Of a stretch of DNA of 64,000 nucleotides, positions 24,347 through 27,619 are shown piece after piece; position 1 is the stretch's first letter, and each line of letters opens with the position of its first letter. The notes under the pieces are model-generated. The model saw only the letters and a program-made list of their open reading frames with translations, had not been told where the DNA came from and made no database searches. The position numbers were made by a program, and so were the translations under genes. Source of the DNA: Gammaproteobacteria bacterium. GTDB lineage: Bacteria; Pseudomonadota; Gammaproteobacteria; GCA-002705445; GCA-002716945. The stretch is taken from contig JAYQJW010000002.1 of the NCBI GenBank assembly GCA_038142325.1, positions 683,328 to 747,327 on the forward strand. Direction: 5' to 3'.

Positions 24347-26786
<2,440 letters not shown>

Positions 26787-26845
26787 GAAATTGAATTATA
26801 GATTAAGATCATTGCAAATATAAAAAAAATTTGATAAAAAAAAGC

Positions 26846-27286
26846 ATGAGTCTTATAAAAAATTTTCCACATGACGGAATTGTCACTATCAATCGAGTCA
26901 TAATTAAAGAAGGTCATACACTAGATGAACTGCAAGAGAGGGTTGCACTAATGTGTGAAAATGTGAAGACGTATCATTCAGAGACTGGATTTATTGGAGG
27001 AATGGTTGTTTTAAACAGTGGCCAGATTTCAAACGAAGGAAGTAATGTTGGTAAAGCTCTTGATAGTAACTTGAAAAACAAAGAGGCTTTAATCATTACA
27101 TTTTGGAAATCATACGATGATCATGAAAATTCACATAAAAGCGATACTTTTCAGCCACTCTTTCAAAAGGTGATAGATCTTTGTGAGAATGGTAACGAAG
27201 AGACAGTCTACGATATGATGTGGCAAGGGGAAGCCTATTCACCTGAAATGGCAAAAATGGCTCAGATTGCAAAAGAAGATAATTAG
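26846..27286 (+). CDS. Small ferredoxin-like (dimeric alpha/beta barrel) protein resembling the N-terminal half of sulfur oxygenase reductase
   Basis: RVALMCENV...GFIGG, TFWKSYDDHENSH and GNEETVYDM parallel the SOR motifs KVC...GFVG, YWKDWKDHEEMH and GPWEPIYEI (recalled). The ORF is clean; the function is inferred. Confidence 0.6.
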   Translation: MSLIKNFPHDGIVTINRVIIKEGHTLDELQERVALMCENVKTYHSETGFIGGMVVLNSGQISNEGSNVGKALDSNLKNKEALIITFWKSYDDHENSHKSDTFQPLFQKVIDLCENGNEETVYDMMWQGEAYSPEMAKMAQIAKEDN

Positions 27287-27481
27287 ACTATCGGCGGATT
27301 CTTTTTATTTGTACGCTTGTGTCTTCCGCCAATGAGCTTATGCTTTTTTAATTTCTCATCGAGCTGTTCAAGAGTTGTATCCTTCAAGTCTTATCTCGCG
27401 TGATAATGAAATTTGTTTTTTTATGTAAAGTAGAACTAAAACAACTAAAAACGCTAAAACAAGATATATGATATAATCCAT
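27283..27481 (-). CDS. Small single-pass membrane protein (about 65 aa, one apparent frameshift), not in the ORF track
   Basis: MDYIIYLVLAFLVVLVLLYIKKQISLSREI, then after a shift DLKDTTLEQLDEKLKKHKLIGGRHKRTNKKNPPIV-stop; the stop overlaps the convergent gene's stop. Confidence 0.5.
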
Positions 27482-27515
27482 TTATACATAATATCATAAA
27501 TATAAAAAATATTAT

Positions 27516-27599
27516 GCCACTGTGGTGGAATTGGTAGACACGAGGGACTCAAAATCCCTTTTTCGCAAGAAAGTATCGGTTCGAGTCCGATCAGTGGTA
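27516..27599 (+). tRNA. tRNA-Leu (CAA), long variable arm, CCA not encoded
   Basis: Acceptor GCCACTG/CAGTGGT, D arm GTGGAATTGGTAGACAC, anticodon arm AGGGA-CTCAAAA-TCCCT, T loop GGTTCGAGTCC. Confidence 0.95.
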
Positions 27600-27619
27600 T
27601 TAAAAAAAGGAAATATAAA

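Follow-up and report, generated by a model that had tools for sequence, protein, structure and literature searches.

A predicted single-domain relative of sulfur oxygenase reductase encoded in the genomes of sulfur-oxidising gammaproteobacteria

What kind of protein is encoded by a 146-amino-acid open reading frame (ORF) that lies between queA and a tRNA-Leu gene in a gammaproteobacterial genome of about 1 Mb? We analysed the surrounding 64,000-nucleotide stretch of contig JAYQJW010000002.1 (the window), for which the initial annotation, made from the sequence alone, had described this ORF as a half-size relative of sulfur oxygenase reductase (SOR) with a candidate catalytic cysteine and a His/His/Glu iron site. 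The ORF extends on the plus strand from an ATG at 26846 to a TAG at 27284-27286. A TTG at 26831 is an alternative start that would add five residues; in an alignment of 17 diverse family members (A1) the homologues begin at the ATG position. All motifs quoted in the annotation were found in the translated ORF, including the spacing of 22 residues from His97 to Glu119, and the flanking queA and tRNA-Leu genes are as described. Among characterised proteins, profile comparison puts the N-terminal catalytic half of SOR closest to the product, which is best described as a new single-domain SOR-related variant within the ABM (dimeric alpha-beta barrel) superfamily. The ORF and the residues discussed below are as follows.

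26846..27286, plus strand: 146-amino-acid ORF; predicted ABM-fold protein of one domain, with homology to SOR's N-terminal half (Pfam, NCBIfam, hhalign, AlphaFold model)
26954..26956, plus strand: Cys37 codon; helix alpha1, aligned with the invariant SOR cysteine (Cys31 of StSOR, the SOR of Sulfurisphaera tokodaii)
27122..27136, plus strand: His93-Glu-Asn-Ser-His97 codons; helix 90-97, the His pair aligned with His86 and His90, iron ligands of SOR
27122..27124, plus strand: His93 codon
27134..27136, plus strand: His97 codon
27182..27184, plus strand: Cys113 codon; aligned with the first cysteine of the SOR CxxC
27200..27202, plus strand: Glu119 codon; strand beta4, aligned with the SOR iron ligand Glu114

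The Pfam SOR profile (PF07682) matched residues 13-142 of the window protein at profile positions 4-132 of 300 (E 3.5e-5, 23.2 bits), and the NCBIfam SulOxRed profile (NF047630) matched it with E 3.1e-5. Its top sequence match in the PDB was StSOR (E 2.3e-4). When A1 was used as the family profile, the first nine of 15 PDB matches were all SORs (E 1.8e-4 to 9.2e-3), and the first non-SOR match was IsdI (E 0.099). Ten full-length bacterial SORs taken from genomes of the same class served as the comparison profile for hhalign, which aligned A1 with it at a probability of 92.7% (E 4.3e-7) over 107 columns, all in the N-terminal half. The family comprises two subfamilies, A, which contains the window protein, and B; subfamily A alone was aligned with the SORs at 84.5% (E 6.9e-6). 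Direct Pfam SOR matches at E <= 0.01 were obtained for seven of the 17 A1 members, and family member P0165 exceeded the cut-off of the model at 28.2 bits. Taken as sequence evidence, these matches indicate that the likeness to SOR is true remote homology rather than a chance motif. The claim of a single-domain SOR relative was thereby borne out by Pfam, by the profile search of the PDB and by hhalign, each of which matched the N-terminal catalytic half. The homology covers the whole of that half and takes in both the insertion that separates strands 2 and 3 and the residues following strand 4 (PF07682, NF047630; structures 2cb2 and 6m35). SOR chains of 307-318 residues contain two tandem ABM-like halves that form one 8-stranded barrel of about 300 residues, whereas the window protein ends without a C-terminal half. 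Family members are 124-153 amino acids long, and no longer or fused form (269-2000 amino acids) was found at E <= 0.01 among 7998 candidates scored, which is weak evidence.

The AlphaFold model (pLDDT 88.5) shows a ferredoxin-like beta-alpha-beta-beta-alpha-beta domain with about 40 additional residues, arranged as a hairpin (57-75) and a C-terminal helix (133-145). VIA-align placed 56 of 48,161 representative chains at Z >= 8, and among the best 50 of these 56, with Z >= 8.7 throughout, every chain is an ABM or dimeric ferredoxin-like protein. The top match was SnoaB (3kg0; Z 14.2, root-mean-square deviation 1.5 over 97 residues), and the leading matches, which also included IsdG, were SnoaB, RslO4, LsrG, ActVA-Orf6 and other ABM proteins (Z 10.7-14.2). 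SOR gave the longest structural alignment of any match (120-122 residues), and it was not among the 29 matches listed, down to rank 50, by Foldseek against the PDB, which likewise placed generic ABM proteins at the top. As modelled, the structure is that of an ABM superfamily member, with nothing that points to SOR in particular; it speaks neither for nor against a special relationship with the catalytic half.

These structural matches would fit a different reading, in which the protein is an ordinary cofactor-free ABM monooxygenase, or something similar, whose substrate is organic (a quinol, for example, or some other small molecule) and which occurs in sulfur oxidisers by shared ancestry or habitat. 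The ferredoxin-like fold and the size class are indeed those of ABM proteins (PF03992; SnoaB 3kg0, ActVA-Orf6 1lq9, LsrG), ABM proteins commonly have a histidine in the helix that follows strand 3, and P0165 scored higher with Pfam ABM (35.3 bits, over the cut-off) than with Pfam SOR. The window protein itself, however, scored 14.2 bits with Pfam ABM, under the cut-off of 23.1, against 23.2 bits with Pfam SOR, and it differs from ABM proteins in its extra hairpin and C-terminal helix. The profile search put nine SORs before any other ABM protein, and Cys37 and Glu119 are conserved and common to SOR; we know of no cofactor-free ABM enzyme that shares the conserved Cys/His/His/Glu set of the half-size family. 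On these grounds, and on its distribution described below, we regard the monooxygenase reading as quite improbable.

The residues themselves also link the family to SOR. In the hhalign alignment, Cys37, His93, His97 and Glu119 all fall on invariant columns of the ten bacterial SORs, the invariant cysteine being C40 in the first row of the SOR alignment (A3), and HMMER matched the same SOR columns to Cys31 (in 'kvC'), His86, His90 and Glu114 of StSOR. Conservation was counted in an alignment of 355 family sequences, a redundant set that includes fragments, with the counts taken over sequences that have a residue at the column. Cys37 was kept in 282 of 299 sequences (and in 16 of the 17 A1 rows), His93 in 289/299, His97 in 295/307 and Glu119 in 291/305, so that the Cys, His, His and Glu are each 94-97% conserved across the family. 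According to passages of PMC7398979, the iron of SOR is held by His86, His90 and Glu114, Cys31 is essential, and mutants of Cys101 and Cys104 retain about a tenth of the activity. Judged by these alignments, the equivalents of the SOR iron ligands and of the essential cysteine that the annotation had proposed are conserved in the family. The annotation had also placed a second cysteine where SOR has its CxxC; Cys113 does align with the first cysteine of the pair and is kept in 292 of 307 family sequences, but the second is missing, so that the Cys101-x-x-Cys104 pair of SOR is reduced to Cys113 alone. It had further stated that its reading would fail if the best structural match were a generic ABM or heme-degrading barrel in which His/His/Glu do not cluster, or if these residues were not conserved in homologues. 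The first condition came true as regards the fold, the best matches being generic ABM barrels (SnoaB, IsdG); the second did not, since the residues are conserved.

A further reading is an IsdG-type heme-binding or heme-degrading protein, with Asn16, Trp87 and His97 as the Asn/Trp/His triad, which we take to be the heme-binding triad of IsdG and MhuD. IsdG, IsdI and MhuD have the same fold, with Asn, Trp and His at comparable positions, and show the highest pairwise identities among the structural matches (18-25% overall; for IsdG/IsdI, 18-22% by Foldseek, and 25% with 1xbw and 22% with 8avh by VIA-align). IsdI is the first protein other than SOR in the profile search, Asn is found at position 16 in 14 of the 17 A1 rows, and Trp87 is invariant. 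All three positions are invariant in SOR as well and therefore cannot tell an IsdG-type protein from a SOR relative. No significant match to a heme-degrading family was obtained, the NCBIfam heme oxygenase profile PRK13315 scoring 11.2 bits against a cut-off of 119, and the additional conserved His93, Glu119 and Cys37 point to a non-heme site; to our knowledge these three positions have no role in the IsdG mechanism. A heme protein would also leave the association with sulfur-oxidation genes unexplained, and we consider this reading very unlikely.

To which organisms does the family belong? At E <= 1e-3 it contained 3,780 clusters (90% collection), with 143 representatives at 50% identity. Database names are 'hypothetical protein' or 'ligand-binding protein SH3', and the ESM Atlas returned just the family's own clusters under the latter name. 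Of 24 genomes in the window's own family, all of about 1 Mb, 20 carry the gene; so do 73 genomes in an even sample of 400 from the class (61 genera, mostly 2.5-5 Mb) and eight of 300 further genomes of the phylum. Named carriers with 62-75% identity include the sulfur oxidisers Thiohalophilus thiocyanatoxydans and Thioalkalivibrio thiocyanoxidans, and metagenome-assembled genomes in the same identity range are labelled Sedimenticola, Thiogranum, Thiobacillus, Thiohalomonas, Ectothiorhodospiraceae and Chromatiales. The suggestion of a sulfur enzyme of streamlined bacteria was thus too narrow, since the family is widespread in oxidisers of 2.5-5 Mb (Thiohalophilus, Thioalkalivibrio, Sedimenticola, Thiogranum, Thiobacillus).

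Within the class sample, in which genome G271 was left unscored for the family and the SoxZ and combined tallies include G319, an unpublished SoxZ-positive non-carrier genome, the family was found in 65 of 124 genomes with DsrA, in 7 of 78 with SoxZ only and in 1 of 198 with neither. Counted by carrier, DsrA was present in 65/73 carriers vs 59/327 non-carriers (odds ratio 37) and SoxZ in 68/73 vs 127/327. The family is therefore near-exclusive to genomes with dsr and/or sox, and the phylogenetic profile that the annotation had proposed as a check ties it strongly to sulfur oxidisers. This distribution (72 of 202 genomes with SoxZ or DsrA vs 1 of 198 with neither, across 61 genera) is a further point against a monooxygenase of organic substrates. 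In a quick tree the window's clade was monophyletic (18 rows, SH-aLRT 100) and the remainder unresolved, so that the tree does not distinguish vertical descent from transfer.

The distribution equally fits a sulfur-oxidation protein without oxygenase chemistry, namely a small metal- or persulfide-binding carrier, a sensor, a buffer of sulfane sulfur or a protector in sulfur or heat stress, in which the Cys and the His/His/Glu would serve for binding. Gene neighbourhoods, counted over 74 loci outside the window's clade, lend some weight to such a role. A DegP/HtrA-type protease gene lies upstream on the same strand in 16/74 loci and hsp20 within 3 kb in 10/74, with the order hsp20-degP-gene recurring in at least six, and small receiver-domain proteins are encoded immediately upstream in several loci. 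Full-length SOR was found in 13 of 401 genomes, and 8 of these 13 also carry the half-size gene, from which it follows that the two are not simple substitutes. Some carriers, labelled Chromatiaceae or Sedimenticola, belong to groups that include anaerobes. Against a binding role stand the retention of the exact SOR catalytic residues at 94-97% and the ABM fold, which is typically enzymatic or small-molecule binding (the matches being oxygenases, cyclases and isomerases); we know of no sulfur carrier (TusA, DsrE, Rhd) with an ABM fold. We judge a carrier, sensor or stress protein of this kind to be unlikely.

The other neighbours bear on the readings already described. In 8 of the 74 loci the next gene downstream, on the same strand, is the ATP sulfurylase gene sat (gaps of about 240-490 nucleotides); as the sole conserved sulfur-gene neighbour, it leaves room for the organic-substrate monooxygenase. 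The coproporphyrinogen oxidase gene hemF is next downstream in 5/74, in keeping with an IsdG-type protein. A cluster of neighbours labelled 'sigma-54 response regulators' (17/74 loci) was rejected as a mixed set of hybrid kinases, receivers of about 128 amino acids and NtrC-type proteins joined by their receiver domains. As a separate observation, five loci of sulfur oxidisers (L070, L082, L102, L090 and L104) have a hybrid sensor kinase gene, then a gene for a receiver-only protein of about 128 amino acids, the SOR-like gene and sat, in that order, an arrangement that may be a regulatory unit.

Two observations concern full-length SORs in the sampled genomes. A divergent second clade of full-length SOR-like proteins, encoded by ORFs of 312-344 amino acids, occurs in 6 of the 401 genomes (loci L132-L137 in genomes G189, G197, G298, G043, G238 and G081). 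These proteins scored 204-218 bits with Pfam SOR vs 446-481 bits for canonical bacterial SORs, are about 32-34% identical to the latter, and have the Cys, His-x3-His, CxxC and Glu. Adjoining the canonical SOR gene in four loci (L126, L128, L129 and L130) is a conserved ORF of 425-430 amino acids whose N-terminus, by eye, resembles that of a flavoprotein disulfide oxidoreductase (SQR-like).

What, then, might the half-size protein do? We tentatively favour a cytoplasmic, probably dimeric enzyme that would use non-heme iron and a cysteine to oxidise sulfane sulfur, a reading to which we give somewhat less than an even chance. Two copies would pair their sheets into a barrel, as in other ABM proteins, and each copy would hold one non-heme iron; both the dimer and the clustering of His/His/Glu are predicted from homology and fold. 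Cys37 would take up sulfane sulfur from a persulfide, a polysulfide or a sulfur-carrier protein, and the iron site with O2 would oxidise the Cys37-bound sulfur to sulfite or thiosulfate, with or without the sulfide-forming half-reaction of SOR. In Dsr/Sox oxidisers such an enzyme could serve as an O2-dependent side route or protect the cell when reactive sulfane sulfur is in excess, roles that would fit the frequent position of the gene behind the hsp20-degP stress genes and before sat. Persulfide dioxygenases (ETHE1/PDO/SdoA), which are mononuclear non-heme iron enzymes with a His/His/carboxylate site, convert the sulfane sulfur of persulfides with O2 to sulfite. They would be functional analogues for the proposed reaction only, having a metallo-beta-lactamase fold and no sequence relationship to the family.

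Several results weigh against a sulfane-sulfur-oxidising enzyme derived from the SOR comparison. The profile scores of the window protein lie under the cut-offs (23.2 bits vs 25 for Pfam SOR, 23.1 vs 400 for NCBIfam SulOxRed), and subfamily B alone aligned with the SORs at 76.6% over just 50 columns, with direct Pfam SOR matches in none of five members. The fold search ranks generic ABM proteins ahead of SOR, which appears at Z 10.6-11.0 aligned on its C-terminal half and not on the catalytic half (VIA-align). The His pair is missing in three divergent rows of the 17 in A1, and the family lacks the second Cys of the CxxC, the SOR C-terminal half and the chimney segment. The family is missing from 59 of the 124 genomes with DsrA and is thus not obligatory for the Dsr pathway, and the carriers are kin, so that Fisher p-values for co-occurrence overstate independence. 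No dsr, sox or sulfur-carrier gene was a conserved neighbour among the 74 loci, the commonest neighbours being degP and hsp20. The carriers in groups that include anaerobes sit uneasily with an O2-dependent reaction.

The comparison with SOR also bears on how the two protein types may be related. Both are found in sulfur-oxidising prokaryotes and, by sequence alignment, share the equivalents of Cys31, His86, His90 and Glu114 and of the first CxxC cysteine. SOR is known as a large self-compartmentalising enzyme of O2-dependent sulfur disproportionation in mainly thermoacidophiles and a few bacteria, whereas the half-size family, a minimal one-domain relative, comes from mesophilic marine and sediment bacteria. 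As described in part of PMC7398979, SOR forms a 24-subunit hollow sphere with chimneys, the chimney-forming segment being residues 125-152; this region falls at and beyond the end of the aligned part, and the sequences of the half-size family give no sign of such an assembly. A more far-reaching interpretation, which we find doubtful, is that the family represents an ancestral type of SOR, a 'half SOR' that stands alone as a small iron enzyme and provides an O2-dependent cytoplasmic route from sulfane sulfur to sulfite in mesophilic Dsr/Sox oxidisers, including the streamlined gammaproteobacteria with 1-Mb genomes that are abundant in the sea. The archaeal SOR, with its two domains and 24 subunits, would then have arisen through duplication of a unit of this kind, and models of marine sulfur oxidation would gain a step that has gone unrecognised.

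Our literature search (listings and abstract openings, with supplements left unopened) found no description of half-size SOR relatives, nothing for 'ligand-binding protein SH3' and nothing for SOR together with SAR86. Transcriptome and proteome tables of sulfur oxidisers may carry the gene as 'hypothetical protein'. The protein appears to be a good candidate for an unstudied sulfur enzyme. If it does oxidise sulfane sulfur, a widespread component is overlooked in current inventories of the genes of sulfur oxidisers. Such inventories apply length or coverage filters in their SOR searches; in one, the SOR search required >50% query coverage, as stated in part of PMC6382920. SOR chemistry could in that case also be studied in a simple model system, and the family would show what the evolutionary precursor of SOR looked like. 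Should the protein not be a sulfane-sulfur enzyme, it still marks sulfur oxidisers and is unusually constrained.

This constraint was evident from comparison with genomes of other families. The window protein was 66-68% identical to its counterparts in five such genomes, whereas QueA in the same comparison was 38-39% identical in four genomes and 49% and 32% identical in two pieces found in G137, demonstrating that the SOR-like protein is under strong sequence constraint and is far more conserved than the neighbouring QueA. Contigs from RNA libraries of three runs (X1, X2 and X3; two studies) covered parts of the ORF with 0-2 differing letters, a hint of transcription, given that DNA can occur in RNA libraries. 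In these runs queA and the kinase genes were uncovered; missing cover is no evidence, and the contigs cannot rank expression.

Is the window's genome that of a sulfur oxidiser? The annotation had noted no other sulfur-oxidation genes nearby, which is correct locally; the same genome (1.10 Mb, 98.46% complete, 5.33% contaminated; G+C content of the window's contig, C2, 31.7%) nevertheless has soxXYZA, soxB, dsrAB and aprA-sat. The soxX-soxY-soxZ-soxA genes form a compact cluster beside a Sulf_transp (YeeE/YedE-like) permease gene, with tusA 2 kb off, at C2:451000-470999 (G000, locus L124), about 220 kb from the window. The dsrAB genes are located with a gene for a CCG-domain protein on a separate contig (C7), soxB has a molybdoenzyme gene beside it, and sat and aprA are encoded as well. 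The genome also encodes a rhodopsin, and a search of it for the RuBisCO large subunit found none. DsrA and SoxZ are likewise present in G013 and G018, which are cleaner genomes from the same family. The predicted gene set is that of a streamlined, light-assisted, sulfur-oxidising heterotroph. In the six-frame search, the soxB match (C2:623988-625598, minus strand, 709.9 bits) contained one in-frame TAA, which could be a sequencing error, a pseudogene or reading past the gene end.

Within the window, the SOR-like gene is alone on its strand, and its product, beginning MSLIKNF, has no signal peptide at the N-terminus. Pfam confirmed the minus-strand neighbours secD, yajC, tgt and queA and, downstream of tRNA-Leu, a pfkB-family kinase gene, pyrF and lapB. 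A promoter and terminator scan of the plus strand near the SOR-like start gave nothing above shuffles, and the tRNA was the sole match in an Rfam scan. The flanking genes are as follows.

25764-26786, minus strand: queA (Pfam Queuosine_synth, E 1.9e-111)
27515-27600, downstream of the SOR-like gene: tRNA-Leu(CAA)

Between the SOR-like gene and tRNA-Leu, and convergent with the former, lies a 37-amino-acid ORF with one hydrophobic helix (27368-27481, minus strand). Of 18 loci searched by tblastn (L044-L061, including 17 window-like ones), 10 have a match to it at the syntenic position, with 43-61% identity and E values from 4e-8 to 0.06, and it may be an unannotated small membrane protein.

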